This document shows, in pieces, positions 5,832-46,380 of a stretch of 51,420 nt of DNA. The translations under genes and the position numbers were made by a program. The DNA comes from Patescibacteria group bacterium (GTDB taxonomy: Bacteria > Patescibacteriota > Minisyncoccia > Minisyncoccales > Staskawiczbacteraceae), in NCBI GenBank assembly GCA_038065835.1, contig JBBTQB010000007.1:1-51420 (forward strand). The letters run 5' to 3'. The stretch's first letter is position 1. Each line of letters begins with the position of its first letter. Below the pieces are notes generated by a model. It was not told the DNA's origin and did not search any database. It saw only the letters and a list, made by a program, of their open reading frames with translations.

Positions 5832-6698
5832 TCAGTTGAAGCTCAGCTCAACAGCTGAGGCTTCGGGATGTTCACCGTGCCCGATGTGGGGTTGGTAATC
5901 TTTCTCATCCCGCCATTTGAGAACAGCAGATATGCCACTGCTCTCGTACAGCCGTCCCAACTCATCCTTGTATCCTGGCCGGAAGTGACGATGCAAGAGG
6001 CCATCAGTACCAATGAGTACCCATAACACCTGATGGAGGTGGTCGATGTGCACCATTGTTCGATATTGAAGAACGGTTGGATCCCCGTTTAGCGTGGCCC
6101 AGCCGCCCTTGCCGATGTTCTTGTTGGCGTAACGCACGCGCTTTTCCTGGTAGTGCGGGTAGTACAGATTCCAGGCTTCGCCTTTGTTGCCACCAGCTTG
6201 CTCGAGGCACTTGCCATAGGCATTAATGTCCTGCTCCTCGACTTCGTGAGCGGCTTGGTCGAAACCAGACACGAAGTGGTACCCTTCCAAATCCTTCCAG
6301 AGCTGGAAGCAATCTCCCCCTAGAAATGTGAGAGCGACGTTATCGAAAATCCGACAGATGGCGAAGCTTGCTCCGCCCACATCGTCTCCATTGCAAGGAT
6401 CTTTGCCGATGCTCTGGTGCATTCGGCGGACTCCATCGTTTGTCTGGCGGAGAAAAGAGTAGAGATCAATAGGGCCATTCAAGGCTGCCGCATTGGCAGT
6501 GAGTACTATTGAGGCCATTTGCCCTCCCGTAAGCCCGCAACACGGGTAACGCACGGGTGGGTGCTTTGGGCAGTAGGCTGCCGAGTCGCCATCCGCAGTG
6601 GCATAGACCTGAGCTTCGTCGTTGCAGGATACCGCATCCTCCCTGATAGCCCTCTCATCCGACGGTGGACGGGAGAAGGGTTTGGCAGAAAATCTCAT
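5832..6698 (-). CDS. PP2C-like (PF13672-type) putative Ser/Thr phosphatase, compositionally foreign
   Basis: ATG at 6698 (MRFSAKPF) preceded by GGAGAG. Motif series REDAV, ATADGDSAAY, GGASFAI, GGDCFQLW, IGTDGLL resembles PP2C_2 metal-binding motifs. Clearly G+C-rich relative to both flanks. Confidence 0.5.
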   Translation of the reverse strand: MRFSAKPFSRPPSDERAIREDAVSCNDEAQVYATADGDSAAYCPKHPPVRYPCCGLTGGQMASIVLTANAAALNGPIDLYSFLRQTNDGVRRMHQSIGKDPCNGDDVGGASFAICRIFDNVALTFLGGDCFQLWKDLEGYHFVSGFDQAAHEVEEQDINAYGKCLEQAGGNKGEAWNLYYPHYQEKRVRYANKNIGKGGWATLNGDPTVLQYRTMVHIDHLHQVLWVLIGTDGLLHRHFRPGYKDELGRLYESSGISAVLKWRDEKDYQPHIGHGEHPEASAVELSFN

Positions 6699-6782
6699 GC
6701 ATCTCTCCACTGAAATGTGCTACTGCAGAAACCAAATCCCCCGCAGTATGGGTGCTAAGCAGAAATGCAAAGCATAGTAAAT

Positions 6783-6811
6783 ATATTATGACAAAGATTA
6801 TATACTGTCAA
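6783..6811 (-). promoter_or_regulatory. Sigma-70-type promoter for the G+C-rich gene
   Basis: Minus strand TTGACA (6811-6806), 17 nt spacer, TAATAT (6788-6783). About 85 nt upstream of the ATG and just downstream of the hpf stop. Confidence 0.55.
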
Positions 6812-6851
6812 ACTAAAAAACCGCTACACCGGAGTTTTTAGTTTTTTATTT

Positions 6852-7205
6852 TTAGATAATTTCTCTCTTTGTTTTTCTGTACTTGCGGCGGGGCAGCTCA
6901 ACTGTTTTTGACTTATACTTTCTTATTTCTCTTTCCATCTCGCTCTTTACTTTTGTAATTACCCTGCCTAGATTTTCCCCATGAGACCTTGCCACCAGGT
7001 TGGTTCCGGGTAGATTAATCATTGCTTCTGATTTAAAAATATCTCCTTTACGATGGTGCTTTGTCTCTTTTTCTACCTCAAATAATAATTCTGAACTTTC
7101 CTGCAAATTTTTAACCAACTTTTTGAGACTTACCATTTTCTTATTAATTAAATTTTCTAGCGAATCAGTAAGCTCTAAATTTTTGGTCTTAATAATTATA
7201 TTCAT
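6852..7205 (-). CDS. hpf: Ribosome hibernation promoting factor / RaiA family (short form)
   Basis: 117-aa ORF. N-terminal MNIIIKTKNLELTDSLENLINKK and a basic C-terminus are typical of the S30AE/HPF family. Confidence 0.8.
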   Translation of the reverse strand: MNIIIKTKNLELTDSLENLINKKMVSLKKLVKNLQESSELLFEVEKETKHHRKGDIFKSEAMINLPGTNLVARSHGENLGRVITKVKSEMEREIRKYKSKTVELPRRKYRKTKREII

Positions 7206-37308: not shown

Positions 37309-38568
37309 TCAATCACCTTCCCACCCTCGACCAATTAAAACATATTTATCTTCCTTTTCTTTTACTCCCACTCCTTCTCTTTTGTTAATAATAAATTGAC
37401 AATTATCCTTTTTAGTTAATCTAGCCGAATCAACGCCCTCATCTTTTGCATGATTGATTACAGAATCTTGGAGTTGCCACTGATTTCTTTTATTCTTTTT
37501 CCAAATTTCTGGATCTCTTTTCTTGTCAATATAAGACCAGAATTCCTTTTCTGGCATTGAAATCCAACTTAAAAATAATTGTAAGGCTTTTTTGCTTGGT
37601 TTTAAATTCTGATATTTTCTTACAAGTTCAATCCCCTTTTCCTGGGTTAGGCGCTTTAACCTAATTTCTCTAGTTGCATGATCGGTAGCTTTTCCGTAAC
37701 CCCATTTTAAAAATTTAATATAATCATGTAATTCAGAATAATTAAAACAGTCTACATCGTTATATGTGTCAAAAGTTCTTGGCTGCAAAACTGTTTTGTA
37801 GCCATAAAGATTTATCATCAACTCGTGCTGTTTTTTTGAGTCCCAGCGGATATAATTTGAAAGATAAATTCCTCTGACTCCAACTTTTTCTATTTCCTTA
37901 TCGTGAGGGTATTTATAGGGAGTAACATCACTTTCTGATATATTGTCATCAATCAAATCTTCCGATTCAAAACCCATCAAATCATGGTCTTTTCTATACC
38001 TTCTCGTCATTTCTACCTCGTCTAAATGGCTAAACTGACCAACTTGGTCAACTCCTTGATGAACCCCCCAAATGATAAGAGGAATTTTAAATCTAACAGC
38101 GATTTGAACCGGAAAAACAGTCTGCCCGGCAATACAATGCCAGTATACGCTGCCCATTTTTTCTATTGTATACCTCGTTATCTTCTTAACGGTTTCTGGG
38201 GAAATCGTTAAAGTAAATAAATCGCATCCAAAAATGGTTTTTAAATAGGCTAAGTTTCTTATTCCCAATTTTGTGTTGTATTGCTTGTTGTAAGTTACCA
38301 ATAAAGGATGCATTTTATAAACATTTTTTACGGTATGAACTATAAAATAAGAATCTCTAGCTCCGCTAACTGGTATAATGCAGTCATAATTTTTGCCGTC
38401 TTTATTTCTATACTGCTCCAGTATTTTTTTTAATTTTTTCTCACGCTCCGACCAATTAATAACGTCTTTTTCTCCATGGATAAGACACCCGCTGCAAACA
38501 CTTTTTTCATTAAAGATTATGCCAAGAGGATGATTTGCTGGGTATAAACATCTTACACAATATTTCAT
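37309..38568 (-). CDS. N-acetyl sugar amidotransferase (WbuX/PseA/LfnA-type PP-loop enzyme), copy 2
   Basis: 419 aa. N-terminal Cys cluster CVRCLYP...CSGC. PP-loop-like IIPVSGARDS. Confidence 0.75.
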   Translation of the reverse strand: MKYCVRCLYPANHPLGIIFNEKSVCSGCLIHGEKDVINWSEREKKLKKILEQYRNKDGKNYDCIIPVSGARDSYFIVHTVKNVYKMHPLLVTYNKQYNTKLGIRNLAYLKTIFGCDLFTLTISPETVKKITRYTIEKMGSVYWHCIAGQTVFPVQIAVRFKIPLIIWGVHQGVDQVGQFSHLDEVEMTRRYRKDHDLMGFESEDLIDDNISESDVTPYKYPHDKEIEKVGVRGIYLSNYIRWDSKKQHELMINLYGYKTVLQPRTFDTYNDVDCFNYSELHDYIKFLKWGYGKATDHATREIRLKRLTQEKGIELVRKYQNLKPSKKALQLFLSWISMPEKEFWSYIDKKRDPEIWKKNKRNQWQLQDSVINHAKDEGVDSARLTKKDNCQFIINKREGVGVKEKEDKYVLIGRGWEGD

Positions 38569-38676: not shown

Positions 38677-39546
38677 TTATATAATTTCTTCTTTAATATA
38701 TTCGAATCTAAGCTTATCTAAATAATTTTCCGGCCTTTTTGCTATTCTCCCGTTTTCCACAAAATTTATCTCTTGGTAATTGGCATAGGTATCTAATCTA
38801 ACATCTACCCCTTTTTTAATTAAAAATGATTTTAACGTTATCGGACTATGTTCTGTAAAATGGAAAAAGTTTCCTGCAGCCGAGGCCAAAGCGCTAGTTT
38901 TAGTGAAAACTTCCAAGAAATGTTTGGGCTGCCCAGCTCCTCCGCAGGCAATGACAGGGATTGAAACAGCTTTACTTATTTTTTTAATTATCTGCAGGTC
39001 ATAGCCTCGTTTTGAGCCATCCCTATCAATAGAATTAAGCAATATTTCTCCGGCCCCCAAATTTTCAACTTCTCTTGCCCATTTTACGGGATCCAATCCA
39101 GTAGGATTTTTGCCATTGTCAGAATAAACTTCATATTTGCCGTTTTTTCTTTTTACATCCATGGAAACTACGATGCACTGGTTTCCAAAAATTTCTGCTG
39201 CCTTTTTAATGATACTTGGATTTTTTAATGCCAATGCATTGATTGAAATTTTATCTGCCCCTTCTCGTATGATTTTCCTCATATCATCCAAGTTTCTTAT
39301 TCCTCCTCCTACAGTTAATGGCACGAAACTTTTTTTAGAAACTTCTGTTATCAATTTAAAATCTGGTCCCTTACCCTGCCTCGTTTTATCAATGTCAAGC
39401 AAAATTATCTCGTCTATGCCCCACTTATTTAAAAATTCAATACAAACACCAATGCTTCCAATCGGCAAATACTTTTTAAATCCTACGCTTTGCACAACAA
39501 TTCCGTCTTTAATGATTAATGTAGCGACAATTCTTTTTTTAAGCAT
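38677..39546 (-). CDS. HisF-like cyclase subunit (WbuZ-type) of a glycan amidotransferase complex
   Basis: 289 aa. LLDIDKT, TVGGGIR, NSIDRDGSKRGYD, ACGGAG. Confidence 0.85.
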   Translation of the reverse strand: MLKKRIVATLIIKDGIVVQSVGFKKYLPIGSIGVCIEFLNKWGIDEIILLDIDKTRQGKGPDFKLITEVSKKSFVPLTVGGGIRNLDDMRKIIREGADKISINALALKNPSIIKKAAEIFGNQCIVVSMDVKRKNGKYEVYSDNGKNPTGLDPVKWAREVENLGAGEILLNSIDRDGSKRGYDLQIIKKISKAVSIPVIACGGAGQPKHFLEVFTKTSALASAAGNFFHFTEHSPITLKSFLIKKGVDVRLDTYANYQEINFVENGRIAKRPENYLDKLRFEYIKEEII

Positions 39547-39552
39547 AGTAAT

Positions 39553-41589
39553 TTATTCCCTTGCGCTTTTTAACGCACTATAAAATGTTTCGTATTCTTT
39601 TACTAATTGGTAGTCATCAACATTCGCAACAAGATCATCATATTTTTGTGCATTTATAGTTTTTAAAGACTGACGTATTTTCTCAAAAACACCCTTGATT
39701 TTTTCTTCGGACGGATTTCTGGTGTCGACTATATATTCATAATGGCTTAATATGGGCGATTTGCTTAATAAGTATTTTAGTTCCGTAGCATCTTCTTCTT
39801 TTGTTCCAGGTGAAAAATCAAAGAATAATTCTGGCATAGCTTCCCTCATTTTTACTCTAAATCTTGGACTCTCTTTGAGGAGTTTCTCAAAATCTTTATG
39901 AGATTTTAATTCTTCAAACACTTCCCTTTGTAGGTTGTTATCTAAAAAAATCAACGATTGTGCATGGTAATCTGAAAGTGTTTTATTTTTTAAGTAATTT
40001 TTAAGAATACCCCTAAAATCTAGTTCAGAATTTGTTTGCGAAATCTTATATAGCGTTTCAATTTCAGTCCTGTCTGCACTCTCTGCAATTTTTAAGTATT
40101 CTTGTCCAATTGCTTTAATAAATGGTTTTGGTAGTCCCTGCGGCACTCCTTGTTTTTTCATCAGTTCCAATGCTCTTGATACATAAAACTGCTTTTCTTC
40201 TTCTGGGCTTACATGACCTCCTACATCACCAGGTTTTTCCATTTTCAAGGCATAAAAAGACAGAATGTGTTTTAATTGTTCTTCCTTATTTGGAGCAGTA
40301 TCTTTAAGGTCTTTTCCAATTGCATTAACCACAGGCTCCATTCTGGTGAGCGTATAATCTAAACCTTCTATCTCTTTAGTATCTAAATTTCTCTTTGCCC
40401 ACGTAGTATCAATGATAACCGCATTTGCAGCACCCCCTCTTGAAACAGTAACGAATGTATTCCAAGCATGTCCGCTCTTATTCATTTGTTGCTTGTTCCA
40501 ATCCTCTCTTTTGGGAGCAAAAGTTTCTGTGCCTTTTTCATATAGGCAATAAGTATCACGAAGTTGACTGAACTGCGTTTGGTTTTCCTTTAATGCTTCA
40601 AAAACTGCTTTAATAGCACTGGCAAAATTTCTGCAGACTCCATTACCCTTCCAATCTTTATTATCTCTTTTTTTCTTTCCTTCTTTCAAAAGTTCCAAGG
40701 TAGTGCTTTCATCTGCCTCTGTTTTTTCTGGCTCACCCGTATAAATTCCTTTGTATTTTTTTACATCACTCCACTTATATTTCGTTAAATCAATAACTAT
40801 TTGAGTTGCTAACTCTATTGCTTGTTTTGGAGTAAGTGCATCTAAATGTTCAATTTTTAACTGCTTCAAAATGTCTTGACCATCCTTTTGGAGATGTTCA
40901 GAAACAAAAGCAAAGAGCTTTTTCTCCCAATCTTTTTCTTTAATTGTTTCTTGATACGTTGAAGCTCCCGGTTCAGTTCCGTCCAGTCTTCCTTCCCCTA
41001 TTAAATACTTTTTAATGGAATCTGGTATTTCGTGAGTCTCTTTTGACGGGGCAACATTTGGATTAAATGCGGTAAGTTCTTCAAAGGCAATCTTTTCATT
41101 TTCAGCTGTTTTAATTTCAAGCAAGGGATTACGTGTTAACTTTTCCTCATCTTTTCTCCTTTCTAAAAAATAATCCTTAGCTTCGTTCCAGGTATCAAAT
41201 TCTTTATAGGTTGTGCCAATATAATGACCTGTTTTTGTATCAACTAATCCCGGAAGCATAACTCTAAATTTGCCCTCTGGATTTTCATCAATTCTGAAGA
41301 AATATTTTGAATATGTTTTTTCCAGCGAGGCTCTTTCAAATTGCTCTTTCACATCTTCTTTTACTTGTTCTACGGCTGTCTCAGCTTCTTGTCTTGTTTC
41401 AAAAATTTTCTTGGTTGTTCCAAAAATCAACCTTTTATTTTTATCCAAAAGACCGGGCATATTAACTTCAAAACCATTTTCAACTGGACTTATTTCATAC
41501 AAACCTATCACAGATTTCTTTTTTTCTGGCTTTAACCGTTCTTTATTATCTTGTGATTGTTGTTGTGACTGCTCATTTTTTTTTGACAT
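39553..41589 (-). CDS. Large cytoplasmic protein with transglutaminase/papain-like Cys-His-Asp core and duplicated N-terminal module
   Basis: 678 aa, no signal peptide. Candidate triad GVCRNFA / SGHAWNTFV / IIDTTW. Two ~50-aa N-terminal repeats (NGFEVNMPGLLDKNKRLIFGTTKKIFETRQEAE and GKFRVMLPGLVDTKTGHYIGTTYKEFDTWNEAK). Confidence 0.45.
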   Translation of the reverse strand: MSKKNEQSQQQSQDNKERLKPEKKKSVIGLYEISPVENGFEVNMPGLLDKNKRLIFGTTKKIFETRQEAETAVEQVKEDVKEQFERASLEKTYSKYFFRIDENPEGKFRVMLPGLVDTKTGHYIGTTYKEFDTWNEAKDYFLERRKDEEKLTRNPLLEIKTAENEKIAFEELTAFNPNVAPSKETHEIPDSIKKYLIGEGRLDGTEPGASTYQETIKEKDWEKKLFAFVSEHLQKDGQDILKQLKIEHLDALTPKQAIELATQIVIDLTKYKWSDVKKYKGIYTGEPEKTEADESTTLELLKEGKKKRDNKDWKGNGVCRNFASAIKAVFEALKENQTQFSQLRDTYCLYEKGTETFAPKREDWNKQQMNKSGHAWNTFVTVSRGGAANAVIIDTTWAKRNLDTKEIEGLDYTLTRMEPVVNAIGKDLKDTAPNKEEQLKHILSFYALKMEKPGDVGGHVSPEEEKQFYVSRALELMKKQGVPQGLPKPFIKAIGQEYLKIAESADRTEIETLYKISQTNSELDFRGILKNYLKNKTLSDYHAQSLIFLDNNLQREVFEELKSHKDFEKLLKESPRFRVKMREAMPELFFDFSPGTKEEDATELKYLLSKSPILSHYEYIVDTRNPSEEKIKGVFEKIRQSLKTINAQKYDDLVANVDDYQLVKEYETFYSALKSARE

Positions 41590-41635
41590 AAGTTCAATAT
41601 CTGACCAATCATCTGCGAGATGGACAAATTACTCA

Positions 41636-42262
41636 CTATGAAATGCTTAGATGATTGAAGAATGACCTAAACAACTTCAAGCCGTTGTTTTGTGATTTCT
41701 CGGGGTGAAATTGGACTCCAAAAATATTATCTTTTTGCACCGCCACCGCCATCTCTTGGCCATAATTACAAGTTGCCGCAGTATATTTTCTATTACACTC
41801 TAAATAGTAGCTATGGTCAAAATAAAAATTTGAACCATCTGATAATTTTGAGAATAAAGGCTCTTTTTTAAAAATATTTATTGTATTCCATCCAACGTGA
41901 GGTATTCTAAATCCCTTTTTTTCTTTAAACCTTACAACATTCCCGCTTATAAAACCCAATCCCCTGTGAAATCCGTTTTCTTCTGACCAGTCAGCAAACA
42001 CCTGGAATCCCAGGCAAATTCCTAAAATCGGCTTTTTCTTTTTTAAAACTTGTTGCTTTAACAATTGAGTGATTTTAAACTTTTCAAGATTCTTCATTGC
42101 TTCGCCAAAAGCGCCAACACCGGGTAAAATAAGAACCTTGGCATTTTCAATGTCCTTTTTTTTATTTGAAACCAAAAAATCATATCCTAAGGATTCAAGC
42201 GCGTTTATCACCGATTGATCATTTCCAACCCCATAATCAATAATAAGAATGGGTTTGTTCAT
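41636..42262 (-). CDS. HisH-like glutamine amidotransferase subunit (WbuY-type)
   Basis: 208 aa. Nucleophile elbow GICLGFQV. HVGWN. FGVQFHPEKS. Confidence 0.85.
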   Translation of the reverse strand: MNKPILIIDYGVGNDQSVINALESLGYDFLVSNKKKDIENAKVLILPGVGAFGEAMKNLEKFKITQLLKQQVLKKKKPILGICLGFQVFADWSEENGFHRGLGFISGNVVRFKEKKGFRIPHVGWNTINIFKKEPLFSKLSDGSNFYFDHSYYLECNRKYTAATCNYGQEMAVAVQKDNIFGVQFHPEKSQNNGLKLFRSFFNHLSIS

Positions 42263-43383
42263 TTTAACTCTACTTTTAATTTAAATTTCTCATTTCTATC
42301 TTTTTTCCAGATGTTTTTATTACGATATGATTCAGCAACTTTCCAAAATTTCTTTTCTGAAATTCCAAGGTATTTACAAAATCTTTTAATAAATCTATCA
42401 GCGCATTTGCCATCGTACTTTTTAACAAACTCTATTGCTTTTTTTCTTGTTATCATTTTGAGTCTCACTGCTTCAGCTATCTGGTCGGTAACTTGGCCAA
42501 AACCAAATTTTAAATATTTTAGCATCTGGTTTACCACTACATAGTCTTCGTCTAAGGCGCCGAAGCCATAAATATCTCCAATATCTTCAGGCGGATCGTC
42601 CCGCACCATCAAACCTCTTTTAACAGCAAATTCAGCATTTTTAAACCTTGTGAAATCTTTTATATAGTAACCCAAATAAACAATTCTCAATTTTGCCCAC
42701 TCTAATTCTTCATCTTCAGGATATTTGTATAAAATAAGATCTTGGTCCTCCATTTCTTCAGTCACTAAATTATTTTTTCTTGGATCTCCCCCTTGCAACG
42801 TATGATAATATTTCATTTTGTTTGCATCTCCTGTTAAAGATCCGACACCCGTATCTCCCATGGCGATAGCTGGATTTTCTCCTAAAAATATAAGAGGGAT
42901 ATGATAGGCAATAGCAACCTTAGGAGCCGACGCGTAAAGAGCCATCTCTGTTGATTTACACCAATTTCCATATTTCAAAAACCCTTGCAACATTAATTTT
43001 TTCCATACTTTAGGATTTGGAGCCGTTGTAATACAGTCAAAACCCAGGGAAATGAGATTTGATATGTTGCGAGCTCCCCTTTCTGCAAGCTGCTCTGGTG
43101 GGTATTGGCAAGAAACCAATAACGGCTTTAATCCTAGCTCATCTCTAACAAATATGGACTGGCGAGTACTGTCTTTTCCTCCGCTCACCCCAATAATACA
43201 ATCGTATCCTGAAACATTATGTTTCTTCCCATATTCAGCAATTTCCTTTAATTCCCTAGCTCTTTCCCCCCAATCAATTGCTTGGGTCTGTTTAGCAAAA
43301 AAACAGGCCAGGCAAACCCCATTTTTATCAAATTGAATGCCAGGCCTGGTATCTGGTTGAACACATTCTTTGCAATATTTCAT
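42259..43383 (-). CDS. N-acetyl sugar amidotransferase (WbuX/PseA/LfnA-type), copy 1
   Basis: 374 aa. CKECVQPDTRPG...CLAC. Canonical PP-loop IIGVSGGKDS. Confidence 0.8.
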   Translation of the reverse strand: MKYCKECVQPDTRPGIQFDKNGVCLACFFAKQTQAIDWGERARELKEIAEYGKKHNVSGYDCIIGVSGGKDSTRQSIFVRDELGLKPLLVSCQYPPEQLAERGARNISNLISLGFDCITTAPNPKVWKKLMLQGFLKYGNWCKSTEMALYASAPKVAIAYHIPLIFLGENPAIAMGDTGVGSLTGDANKMKYYHTLQGGDPRKNNLVTEEMEDQDLILYKYPEDEELEWAKLRIVYLGYYIKDFTRFKNAEFAVKRGLMVRDDPPEDIGDIYGFGALDEDYVVVNQMLKYLKFGFGQVTDQIAEAVRLKMITRKKAIEFVKKYDGKCADRFIKRFCKYLGISEKKFWKVAESYRNKNIWKKDRNEKFKLKVELK

Positions 43384-43405: not shown

Positions 43406-44116
43406 TTAACTTGATTTTCTAGCGTCTTCAATAAATATAGCCACTCCCTCTTTGGATTTTGCCGATACTAAGGATTTAGCAAGGGCTTCCGGAGGAATAG
43501 TTATGGCGTGGCCTCCAGCTCTTGAAAAGTATTCAACGTTTTCTGGACTCCTTACGGAAGCTATTAAAATTTCAACACCATTAATCTGATAACAATCAAG
43601 CCAATCGCGCGTATTTTTAATTGCGTTAAAAGCGACTTGAACTCCGTGCTCTTCTGCGATTCTACCCGCAAAAATGCTGATGAAATGAGGTTTTTTTGCA
43701 TTTGCAGATTGTAAACCATTGGCAAGAGTTTTTGCTGTCAATATTGCCTGATTATAGGTCATCACTGAGGTCACGTTTATAATTATTCCCTCTTTGACCA
43801 ATTGATTAATCGCTGAAAGCAAAGAGTTGCCATTTCTGTCAATTACAGTCACTTTCACTACTATATTTAGAGCCCAGTTGGTAAATTCTCTTGCCTGGCT
43901 TATAATTTCTTCTGGGTTTTCTGATGTTACTTCAACACTTAGTGGTCTTGGATCAATTAATTTTGCAATTTCCAGGATTCTTTCCTTAACTTTTTCCTTG
44001 TCCAAAATTCCCGCTTTTACAAAAGTTGTGGGATTGGTAGTAACCCCGTCGCAAAGCCCTTCTGCAAGATATTTTTTAATTTCCTCTATGCTGGCTGTGT
44101 CTATAAATATTTTCAT
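43406..44116 (-). CDS. Fructose-6-phosphate aldolase / type-3B transaldolase family protein
   Basis: 236 aa. MKIFIDTASIEEIKK and DGVTTNPT. Confidence 0.8.
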   Translation of the reverse strand: MKIFIDTASIEEIKKYLAEGLCDGVTTNPTTFVKAGILDKEKVKERILEIAKLIDPRPLSVEVTSENPEEIISQAREFTNWALNIVVKVTVIDRNGNSLLSAINQLVKEGIIINVTSVMTYNQAILTAKTLANGLQSANAKKPHFISIFAGRIAEEHGVQVAFNAIKNTRDWLDCYQINGVEILIASVRSPENVEYFSRAGGHAITIPPEALAKSLVSAKSKEGVAIFIEDARKSS

Positions 44117-44133: not shown

Positions 44134-46380
44134 TTAACTTTGTTTTACGAGATTGCCAATCCAATTAATTCTTTTGGGGACCGAGGTACTTTCTGCTTTT
44201 GTAGATACATAGTTTACTAAATCAAAATATCTGTTTGTCGAATTTTCATTGTCAAAATAACCATGCAAATATAAATTATTGTTCAACATACGAACATTAT
44301 CCTCAATAAAGACGGCTGAATGCGTTGTAAACTTATGCTCTTCTGGTCCCTTATCAGAATCTTGAAAAAGGTAAAGATTTTTCAGTTCTCCTTCTTTAAA
44401 GGCTCTTTTAAGGTCTTCAAGAACTTGCTCTTTAGAGACATTATTTGTAAGCTTGAACCTAAAATCAAGCATTGAAACTCCGTCGTAGGGAACGACGGTG
44501 TAATTTACCGTAAAATTATTTTTGTTAATGAAATCTAAAAGATTAGGTCCTGATTTTTCAAGAGTACAAAATTTTCTGTTCATAGTATTAAAATCTTTAA
44601 GTTTGTAATTGGGAACACTGTGTACAAAGTTAGCATCGCTTTCCAAAACGCCGTACTTTTTATTGATATAATTTGTTAAAGGAACATATGAGTTGACTGT
44701 GCAAGAACCGTAAGAAATTACCTTCATGTCTTTATTGTATTCAAGATGATTAAAACCATAAATTAAATTTTTAGCGTCCCATGAAGTTGCAGAAATTACT
44801 ACTAATTTTGTGTTGTCTAGAATATACTTTTCACAGTCTTTGGCAATATTGTTTTTACCAGAGCATTCCAAAAATATATTAGGCTTTCCTACCCAAGGTA
44901 TTTGGTCTTTTAATTTGTTTGTATACTCTATAGTAACCTTTGCGGCATCTGAGTCAGAAAAAACCAAATTACTTTGCAATATACTCACCTTATAATCTTT
45001 AAAAGAAACGTAAGAGTCATTATTAATGATAGAAAGCGCATCTTCAATTGAAAGAAAATTATCGTTAATGTAATTAATTTCAAAATTAGCGCTGTTTTTC
45101 CTATCAAGCCAATACCTTAAAAGGTGAAGTCCGAACCTGCCAAATCCATTTATTCCAGTAGTTGTTATAGGCCTTGTTTTAATAATGAGGGTTTCTTGTA
45201 TTTTATCTTCTATTTTCAGTAAATCTTCAAGTGTATCTGCAGAACTTATAATTTGATTGGTCCTTGCAGCTGAATGTACCAGGGGTTTTACTCTATCTCC
45301 AATTTTAGACCTGAAATAGACATCTCGCACCCCCCTTATATTTTTAAGTTCTTCTGCCCCTTGAATATCAACAATGATTCCTGAATCATGGATTACCGAA
45401 ATGGTAGAAGACCATTTCACCCATTTGGGCACCAAGTCAACCGGATCTAATGGAAGCCCACAGGCAATATCTATTGTAGCTTTTAAGATATCCATGCCAA
45501 AGCTATAGGGTTTTCTCAGTTGTGAATCAAATCCTCCGGAAGTTCTGGCAGTTACTTCAAGAATTCTTACATTTCCCTCTTCATCTACTAATAAATCTCC
45601 CTTAAATGCTCCATCCGTGACACCCAAGACCTTGGCAGCTTTATCCATTTTTTCATACATGGCGCTCTGCACGCTTTCTGGCAGTAAAGAGGGAGTGCGG
45701 GAGCCAATATGCACCGCATATTTTTCCTTTGGCAGGAAAATCCTGTCTGAAACGCCAGCGGGATATAATTTACCCTGATACAAAACTGTGTCCACACTAT
45801 ATTCTTCACCTTTTAATTCTTCTTCAATTAAAACTTCTTTTGTAAAGTTGCAAAAACTTAACGCTAAGTTAAATGCTTGCTCTAACTGGTCTTCGCTAGT
45901 TATTTTAGTTATCCCCTTACAAGCCCAGCTGTCTGCTGGCTTTACATAACAGGGGAAACCAACATCTTTTACTGCTTCCTCAACTTCCTGTAGGTTCTTA
46001 GCCGTGGCGAAGCGGACATTTTCTACGCCAGCCCCCGAAAGAATGTGACGCATTCTAATTTTACTCTTGCAATTTAAAGCAGCTTCGGGGTCTATGCCGG
46101 GCAAACCAGCTTCTTTTGCAGCATAAGCTACGGTGTAAGCGACATCATGTCCTTGAGTGTATACTGCAATGATTTTGCCTTCTGACTTTAACTGCTTTGC
46201 CACTTTAGCTGCTCCACCTAAGTCATTTATATCAACGCAATAGAAAAAGTCAGCGTATTCTCTTGCAACACAGTTTTCTGAACCATCTAAAAGATAGGTG
46301 GTAAAACCAAGCTCTTTTGCCTTCTTCAAACCCGGTATCTGCAGCTCACCCCCCCCAATAATTAAAATTCCTTTTTCCAT
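44134..46380 (-). CDS. Fusion protein: N-terminal ATP-grasp ligase + C-terminal divergent GAPDH-like dehydrogenase
   Basis: 748 aa. Residues about 1-400 are ATP-grasp-like (GFPCYVKPADSWACKG, ILEVTARTSGG). Residues about 405-748 carry GAPDH landmarks INGFGRFGLHLLR, SYGSCTVNSYVPL (catalytic Cys context) and YFDNENSTNRYFDLV. Confidence 0.7.
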   Translation of the reverse strand: MEKGILIIGGGELQIPGLKKAKELGFTTYLLDGSENCVAREYADFFYCVDINDLGGAAKVAKQLKSEGKIIAVYTQGHDVAYTVAYAAKEAGLPGIDPEAALNCKSKIRMRHILSGAGVENVRFATAKNLQEVEEAVKDVGFPCYVKPADSWACKGITKITSEDQLEQAFNLALSFCNFTKEVLIEEELKGEEYSVDTVLYQGKLYPAGVSDRIFLPKEKYAVHIGSRTPSLLPESVQSAMYEKMDKAAKVLGVTDGAFKGDLLVDEEGNVRILEVTARTSGGFDSQLRKPYSFGMDILKATIDIACGLPLDPVDLVPKWVKWSSTISVIHDSGIIVDIQGAEELKNIRGVRDVYFRSKIGDRVKPLVHSAARTNQIISSADTLEDLLKIEDKIQETLIIKTRPITTTGINGFGRFGLHLLRYWLDRKNSANFEINYINDNFLSIEDALSIINNDSYVSFKDYKVSILQSNLVFSDSDAAKVTIEYTNKLKDQIPWVGKPNIFLECSGKNNIAKDCEKYILDNTKLVVISATSWDAKNLIYGFNHLEYNKDMKVISYGSCTVNSYVPLTNYINKKYGVLESDANFVHSVPNYKLKDFNTMNRKFCTLEKSGPNLLDFINKNNFTVNYTVVPYDGVSMLDFRFKLTNNVSKEQVLEDLKRAFKEGELKNLYLFQDSDKGPEEHKFTTHSAVFIEDNVRMLNNNLYLHGYFDNENSTNRYFDLVNYVSTKAESTSVPKRINWIGNLVKQS

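Follow-up and report, generated by a model that had tools for sequence, protein, structure and literature searches.

Does a gene that stands between the two subunits of a sugar-amidating glutaminase/synthase pair belong to that system, or does it lie there by accident? The question is raised by an open reading frame (ORF) of 678 amino acids (aa) with an ATG start, found on the minus strand (39553..41589) of a 51,420-nucleotide (nt) stretch of DNA from a Patescibacteria group bacterium of the Staskawiczbacteraceae (contig JBBTQB010000007.1, assembly GCA_038065835.1). This whole stretch is referred to here as the window. The ORF separates the gene for a HisH-like glutamine amidotransferase (the equivalent of WbuY) from the gene for WbuZ, a HisF-like subunit of a glycosyl amidation module, and the pair is bracketed by two paralogous genes for WbuX-type N-acetyl sugar amidotransferases (WbuX1 and WbuX2). 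We consider it probable that the 678-aa protein is a soluble thiol enzyme of transglutaminase fold with a peptide or protein amide bond as its target, and that its position between hisH and wbuZ is a tolerated accident of insertion.

The membership of the gene in the cassette was investigated from two sides. On the side of the cassette, 56 loci encoding WbuZ relatives (40-71% identity) were collected from contigs representing one genome per species, the five window proteins were located in them by tblastn, and a homologue of the 678-aa protein was sought within +/-6 kb. In about 50 of the 56 loci WbuX1, HisH, WbuZ and WbuX2 were contiguous and in this order, with the end of HisH about 4-40 nt before WbuZ (e.g. 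L012). An earlier note on this DNA, made from the letters alone, had expected these genes to be normally contiguous, and they are. The ~50 loci come from Staskawiczbacteria and other Patescibacteria (71% identity), Omnitrophota, Bacteroidota, Ignavibacteria, Proteobacteria, Leptospira and a Nanoarchaeote. The 678-aa protein had a homologue in none of the 56 loci, and compared with these cassettes the junction between HisH and WbuZ is interrupted in the window only. The window therefore shares the gene order of the WbuX-WbuY-WbuZ module (NCBIfam TIGR03573, TIGR01855 and TIGR03572; the AglZ/HisF2 acetamidino modification family) with these ~50 loci, but unlike them it carries the additional gene. 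The strength with which the order WbuX1-HisH-WbuZ-WbuX2 is conserved across phyla is now documented, and this conservation suggests that one HisH/WbuZ glutaminase/synthase pair serves both WbuX amidotransferases. Several loci (L014, L036, L039, L040 and L046) possess a second, more distant WbuX-HisH-WbuZ set nearby.

On the side of the protein, homologues were located at 79 loci (11 by exact-protein look-up and 68 by metagenome scan), which fall into 64 non-redundant groups. HisH, WbuZ or WbuX were found in the flanks of none of the 79. The 678-aa protein has no NCBIfam or Pfam match that would place it in a family known from WbuX/WbuY/WbuZ clusters, and keyword queries of the literature on WbuX/WbuY/WbuZ, and on Patescibacteria together with transglutaminase-like, found no paper. 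Judged from these gene contents, the gap between the hisH-like gene and wbuZ has most likely been filled by an incidental one-off insertion with no functional tie to the amidotransferase. A one-off insertion should stay out of pathway models and annotation, and on this reading the HisH/HisF-type sugar amidotransferase gains no new subunit here.

The arrangement itself was verified in a 2.7-kb metagenome contig (L136) of the Hainich groundwater series, which was assembled independently, matches window positions 41832..39127 at 99.93% and covers both junctions. The arrangement is therefore real, an assembly chimera was ruled out, and the gaps of 46 and 6 nt reported by the earlier note are exact. 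The sole indel of this contig relative to the window concerns one G in a GGG run, at ~3x coverage: position 2024 of the contig, corresponding to position 39843 of the window, reads GG, by which the ORF is split into 603 and 94 aa. Because of the ~3x coverage, this is most likely a sequencing error; it could also represent a frameshifted variant in the population.

If the cassette does not explain the gene, its own family may. A word-indexed search returned 130 relatives with 34-78% identity over the full length. All taxon-named relatives among them belong to the Candidate Phyla Radiation (CPR), including Parcubacteria, Levybacteria, Moraniibacteria, Pacebacteria, Uhrbacteria, Falkowbacteria and “Patescibacteria group”, and their product name, where given, is “hypothetical protein”. 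An exhaustive profile search of 1.84 billion representatives identified 281 clusters at 50% identity (E <= 1e-3), in which the one distant member carrying a taxon name is from Peregrinibacteria. The family has no match in Pfam or NCBIfam (it stays below every Pfam threshold), none in PHROGs below E 0.09 and only noise in PADLOC (E 0.0095). Comparison with PDB sequences, by single sequence as well as by profile, gave nothing usable, with no PDB chain at E <= 10 in the core region. The distant longer members (700-1200 aa) contain no informative fused domains, and no member carries a Pfam domain. By the sequences retrieved, the 678-aa protein represents, as a stand-alone protein, a family restricted to CPR/Patescibacteria that had not been described before. 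This family is now delimited as compact, well conserved and absent from Pfam, NCBIfam and PDB, and can provisionally be annotated as a divergent transglutaminase-like thiol enzyme.

This annotation starts from a candidate Cys-His-Asp triad already pointed out in the earlier note. Alignment of 60 members revealed 33 invariant columns, which include the motifs W313-x-G-N-G-x-C319-R, H374-x-W376, D394-x-T-W397 and D411-x-T-x-x-R-M-E418, so that C319, H374 and D394 are invariant in all 60 homologues. Among 217 recovered core segments, the 12 with the lowest scores were inspected; they too carry these three residues and still show the motifs GVCRN[FY]A, HAWN and [IV]D[PTA]T, some with the canonical DPT. 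In the window the codons, each of them checked, lie on the minus strand at 40633..40635 (Cys319, the predicted nucleophile, in GNGVCRNFA), 40468..40470 (His374, in GHAWN) and 40408..40410 (Asp394, in IIDTTW, which becomes DPT in distant members).

An AlphaFold2 model built from the 60-sequence alignment is compact and confident, with a mean predicted local distance difference test score (pLDDT) of 87.6 and a predicted template modelling score (pTM) of 0.82. In its core, Cys319 stands at the N-terminus of helix 319-335, followed by strands 346-353, 374-382 (with His374 at its start) and 387-393 (with Asp394 just after it). Papain-like and transglutaminase-like enzymes share a topology in which a Cys-bearing helix is followed by strands bearing His and Asp, and in the model the 678-aa protein displays it, with the Cys at a helix N-terminus and the His and Asp on adjacent strands.

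A second line of evidence is provided by profile-profile comparison with PF01841 (Transglut_core). Template retrieval started from a hand-composed transglutaminase-like bait sequence, which led to the PDB entries of TgpA (6g49), a “putative cysteine protease” (3isr) and PNGase (2f4m); with a real TgpA fragment, 23 PF01841-annotated proteins were then retrieved and aligned. When a 34-sequence alignment of the family was compared by hhalign with the untrimmed PF01841 alignment, the probability was 5% (P 0.008), while the 218-sequence core against a trimmed template of 20 PF01841-annotated sequences reached a probability of 87% (P 4e-6), in a register that places Cys on Cys, HAW on HAW and D-T on DPT. 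The reversed-template control gave a probability of 0.1%. A first shuffle control, run with a gappy template, produced outliers in 2 of 200 cases, one of them at an aberrant score of 136. With the gap-cleaned template the score was 34.1 (probability 83.7%, P 8e-6), a value reached by none of 150 column shuffles (median 10.8, maximum 21.2). An alignment of three PDB fragments (A3) was also tried as template and was discarded, being misaligned.

The 678-aa protein thus has in common with the PF01841 core, its nearest known counterpart, as represented by TgpA of P. aeruginosa (PDB 6g49) and by PDB 3isr, the motif order of a G-x-C-x-x-[FY]-A helix, a strand, an H-A-W strand and a D-[PT]-T strand, together with the same predicted secondary-structure topology and a triad in register (probability 84-87%). 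It departs from this core in the stretch after the Cys helix, which reads “ALKxNQTxF” instead of the usual “RalGiPaRyv”, and in its unique tandem N-terminal modules and 250-aa helical domain, which flank the core. Moreover, TgpA and the secreted bacterial transglutaminase-like proteases are anchored or exported, whereas the 678-aa protein possesses neither a membrane anchor nor a signal peptide. Taken together, the invariant triad, the modelled topology and the profile register make it likely that the protein belongs to the transglutaminase-like superfamily, as a new and very divergent family.

The nearest precedent for such a case is CPR-C4, a CPR-conserved “hypothetical” protein that crystallography and assays showed to be a vasohibin-like cysteine protease (PMC9108980). 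It is transglutaminase-like but undetectable as such by sequence search, and its gene context was uninformative (PMC9108980). The 678-aa family resembles it in being CPR-conserved, annotated as “hypothetical” and found in an uninformative gene context, and it would be the second example, after CPR-C4, of CPR cysteine enzymes with a transglutaminase-like fold that sequence searches have missed. The two families are nevertheless different, and their sequences do not match. According to its description, CPR-C4 has 221 aa, is homodimeric, and combines a Cys61-His93-Leu(carbonyl) triad with a Zn site and a Cys-His spacing of ~32 residues (PMC9108980), while the present family has ~680 aa, a Cys-His-Asp triad and a Cys-His spacing of 55 residues.

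Several observations weigh against the reading as an inserted transglutaminase-fold enzyme. As regards the fold, a Foldseek search with the full model found no significant neighbour in PDB (none at E <= 0.001) or in BFVD, and the separately predicted 249-residue core gave no PDB hit at E <= 0.001 either. The isolated core model is also less confident than the same region within the full model, with a pLDDT of 55-64 in the sheet. HMMER profiles of the family do not reach PF01841, and the PF01841 profile used for hhalign was narrow, comprising TgpA-like fragments and one PDB fragment. The fold assignment consequently rests on sequence profiles and topology: of the transglutaminase/papain-like core that the earlier note had proposed, the invariant triad, the expected topology and an in-register PF01841 match were obtained, but the papain-like fold was not confirmed by Foldseek on the AlphaFold model. 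As regards the insertion, even the closest relatives of the cassette share no more than ~71% identity with it, which makes the event undatable; the composition of the gene (GC content 0.343, and 0.255 at third codon positions) shows no anomaly relative to its neighbours; and its spacing of 6 nt to wbuZ would also suit a recruited operon member.

The noise-level Foldseek matches comprised the papain-like effector SpvD (E ~4) and menin (E ~0.1), neither of them significant. Menin, a protein with both a transglutaminase-like domain and helical repeats, recurs among the top matches of the full model (E 0.1-0.4, TM < 0.2), and together with the large helical C-terminal domain this would fit a non-catalytic structural or adaptor protein that uses a transglutaminase-like fold to bind partners, like Rad4/XPC or menin. 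However, inactive members of this fold, such as Rad4/XPC, have lost the triad, while in the present family Cys, His and Asp stay unchanged over the range of 26-80% identity, embedded in the GNGVCRN, HAWN and DxTW motifs. We therefore regard an adaptor role as highly improbable.

The points concerning the insertion lead to another alternative, namely that the gene was recruited in this lineage as an accessory of sugar amidation, either as a thiol acyl- or amidotransferase acting on a nonulosonic or N-acetyl sugar or as a scaffold for HisH, WbuZ and WbuX, both of which the earlier note had put forward. The tight embedding of the gene among operon genes of its own strand, with gaps of 46 and 6 nt and no terminator, would agree with this, as would a composition indistinguishable from that of the neighbours. 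The fold itself includes PNGase and arylamine N-acetyltransferases (NAT), and NAT-type and PNGase-type members act on non-peptide amides; weak PDB matches to both were obtained with the hand-composed bait, and these illustrate the breadth of the fold only. Against recruitment stands the lack of any co-occurrence in the 56 cassettes and the 79 homologue loci, where the gene never lies between hisH-like and hisF-like genes or beside hisH, hisF or wbuX, so that neither the sugar-directed transferase nor the scaffold finds a counterpart in the synteny comparison that the earlier note had suggested. The absence of the gene from equivalent loci argues against a role in the pathway, with the caveat that the nearest of these cassettes, at 71% identity, are not near-identical to that of the window. 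In addition, the cassette is complete and conserved without the 678-aa gene across many phyla, and members of the family that are set among unrelated genes are strongly conserved (up to 80% identity); the function of the family therefore predates, and is independent of, the cassette. Recruitment is for these reasons very unlikely.

Under the reading that we prefer, a transglutaminase-fold enzyme placed by accident, the 678-aa gene would in one lineage have entered the short spacer between the hisH-like gene and wbuZ of a widely conserved four-gene cassette, which would modify a surface sugar with amidino or amido groups. Neither of the two adjacent ORFs was damaged by the insertion, and for that reason it may have been tolerated by selection. 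The usual tight hisH-wbuZ junction is broken, and translation of WbuZ now has to begin 6 nt past the end of the inserted ORF, possibly with an effect on the balance of the subunits. In the enzyme, Cys319 at its helix N-terminus would be activated by His374 and Asp394, located on two successive strands, and the substrate, a protein or peptide, would be attacked at an amide bond in a protease, isopeptidase or transamidase reaction. Two flanking parts, the duplicated beta-beta-beta-alpha modules at the N-terminus and the helical C-terminal domain of 250 residues, are predicted to pack round the core and presumably select the substrate.

The domains of the protein can be described as follows, with all coordinates on the minus strand. 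A disordered Lys/Gln/Glu-rich tail (residues 1-27, 41509..41589; pLDDT < 50), variable among homologues, precedes two N-terminal modules (residues 33-90, 41320..41493, and residues 99-147, 41149..41295). The first of these consists of three strands and a long helix with the motif PGLxD...GTT.K.F.T..EA; the second, with an invariant W134, is its tandem duplicate. The tandem modules described in the earlier note are well supported, as residues ~36-81 and ~104-150 align with a score of 68 (shuffle mean 23.5, sd 4.7, with 0 of 1000 shuffles reaching 68) and as both appear in the model as beta-beta-beta-alpha units. Recurrent sub-threshold Pfam matches over these modules (Cauli_VI/RNase H1 N-terminus, DUF7336, HNH_repeat and Phage_Y01A) were considered too weak for use. 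A short beta linker (residues 150-187, 41029..41142) carries a conserved IAFxxxxxFNPxVAPS and the invariant P177. The helical subdomain (residues 190-307 in the model) and the predicted transglutaminase-like catalytic core together span residues 190-430 (40300..41022), as delimited by hhalign against PF01841 and by model topology. The C-terminal region is all-helical in the model from residue 413 to 678, in line with the ~250-aa helical C-terminus that had been expected, and the C-terminal domain proper (residues 435-678, 39556..40287), with invariant P586, D600 and E603, has no recognisable relatives; its Foldseek matches were helical-repeat proteins below significance.

The absence of a signal peptide and the charged N-terminus noted earlier are likewise confirmed: no hydrophobic segment, signal peptide or membrane segment was found in the 678-aa protein (maximum 19-residue Kyte-Doolittle mean 0.85), and the net charge is +4 over residues 1-30. 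The protein is thus most likely cytoplasmic. In the profile search against PDB, the linker “EKIAFxxxxxFNPxVAPS” (residues ~150-187) showed a weak resemblance to the G5 repeats of staphylococcal SasG/Aap (whole-sequence E 0.008, individual stretches not significant). Since G5 domains are usually extracellular, this may be a chance likeness of beta-strand motifs.

The gene neighbourhoods of the homologues give further indications on the family. In a Pfam census of 143 genes at homologue loci, most neighbours were unrelated housekeeping genes of scattered function, among them those for tRNA synthetases, RF-1, ribosomal protein S2, DNA ligase and purD, and one distant clade adjoins ychF and tlyA. 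One partner recurs: in the clade of 57-70% identity, 13 of 19 non-redundant groups carry a small XRE-type helix-turn-helix (XRE-HTH) gene (68-137 aa) directly upstream on the same strand, at a gap of ~5 nt where measured (L001, L002 and L010). Such genes are found for instance at 1346-1552 in L001, 7846-7995 in L010 and 5767-6180 in L076, and others are present. A TrwB/TraG/DUF87-type coupling-protein-like ATPase (~812-853 aa) stands no more than a few genes from the homologue in three groups (L010 10882-13362, L086 5375-7813 and L134 1744-4305), a methyltransferase-like protein recurs in four (L008, L010, L084 and L086), and PBECR2 or ART-PolyVal occur near the homologue in a few loci.

These neighbourhoods raise the possibility of a regulated-protease module, in which the family, as a cysteine-protease counterpart of ImmA, CapP or IrrE, would be the partner that cleaves its cognate XRE-type repressor, on a signal possibly sensed by the tandem modules. 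On relocation, the copy in the window would have lost the HTH gene and been left an orphan. Besides the tight same-strand pairing, the best PADLOC scores of the HTH proteins, to CapH and restriction-modification control proteins, agree with this, and so do the TrwB/TraG-like ATPase, PBECR2 and ART-PolyVal at some loci. In the one clade a small XRE-HTH gene is followed directly by the putative protease, as in ImmR/ImmA, CapH/CapP and DdrO/IrrE, and the likeness is one of gene order only. ImmA, CapP and IrrE are Zn metallopeptidases (COG2856), whereas a putative cysteine enzyme is encoded here and the pairing is clade-restricted. No XRE-HTH partner is present in the window, in any of the more distant clades or in L008 (80%, upstream sequence limited to 291 nt) and L009 (71%), the two closest relatives of the window protein. 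It is therefore not a family-wide partner. Furthermore, genes of the XRE-HTH type abound, and the matches in PADLOC are of a generic kind; recurrent integrase, transposase or phage neighbours, as well as viral relatives, are lacking (see below). We consider this module unlikely, although for the family it would be compatible with the reading as a transglutaminase-fold enzyme.

A more elaborate version would see in the family a new signal-regulated, CPR-specific cytoplasmic cysteine protease or transamidase, whose ancestral partner would be an XRE repressor, cleaved or modified by it, and which would thus be a thiol analogue of the ImmA/CapP/IrrE anti-repressors, with the N-terminal modules as sensor. 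The window copy, without a repressor, would have been wired into the surface-glycan operon, coupling its activity to glycan expression. This proposal seems to us quite unlikely.

Signs of mobility at the accidental insertion that we favour were sought as well. The 143-gene census contained no recurrent integrase, transposase or phage genes near homologues, the 2.9 million viral contigs of IMG/VR contained no homologue, and the insert is not framed by direct or inverted terminal repeats of >= 10 nt. An 8-bp inverted match at the insert edges (AGTAATTT / AAATTACT; 41590-41635 and 39547-39556), spotted by eye, is below the length of the repeat finder and likely due to chance in AT-rich DNA. By the comparisons with PHROGs, PADLOC and IMG/VR and by the neighbour census, the protein would not classify as a phage, mobile-element or anti-phage defence protein. 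The gene family changes neighbourhood often. Of the unrelated inserted effector that the earlier note had offered as a further option, the unrelated inserted gene stands (0/56 and 0/79), while “effector” finds no counterpart in a protein with no secretion signal, no phage or defence match and mostly housekeeping neighbours.

The genes around the insertion are all encoded on the minus strand. The first cassette gene, WbuX1 (42259..43383; TIGR03573, 2e-94), occupies the same orthologous position in ~50/56 loci, and its stop overlaps by 4 nt with the gene for the 208-aa HisH-like class-I glutamine amidotransferase (41636..42262; TIGR01855, 2e-69, and PF00117, the Pfam GATase). The upstream-junction spacer of 46 nt (41590..41635) contains no obvious Shine-Dalgarno sequence, promoter or terminator. 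After the 678-aa gene, the downstream-junction spacer of 6 nt (ATTACT, 39547..39552) lies directly 5' of the start codon of the 289-aa WbuZ (38677..39546; TIGR03572, 2e-85, and PF00977, 1e-60), a cyclase-type subunit. WbuX2 (37309..38568; TIGR03573, 1e-101) is the last gene of the cassette and is ~30% identical to WbuX1. The genes flanking the insertion are thus bona fide members of the WbuX-WbuY(HisH)-WbuZ(HisF) module by NCBIfam score or near-threshold score. No terminator-like site was found on the minus strand between the cassette genes and the 678-aa gene, which makes co-transcription plausible, and the gene is probably read through from the glycan operon.

The whole window (GC content ~34%) represents a one-strand surface-glycan cluster with NeuB, DegT-type aminotransferases, a PseB-like dehydratase and glycosyltransferases, and has SecA and MurB at one of its ends. 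Neither rRNA or tRNA genes nor any Rfam family were found anywhere in it. Upstream of the amidotransferase cassette, a transaldolase/FSA-family gene (43406-44116) adjoins a minus-strand gene (44134-46380) for a 748-aa fusion protein, which is unusual in a glycan cluster. Its N-terminal half is ATP-grasp/L-amino-acid-ligase-like (Dala_Dala_lig_C, ATP-grasp_4 and LAL_C2) and its C-terminal half GAPDH-like (Gp_dh_N and, weakly, Gp_dh_C). Finally, a 1-kb stretch at 6001-7000 has a GC content of 0.50, compared to the window average of ~0.34, and coincides with a GTG-start ORF of 292 aa (5832-6710, minus strand) without Pfam match, located just upstream of SecA.

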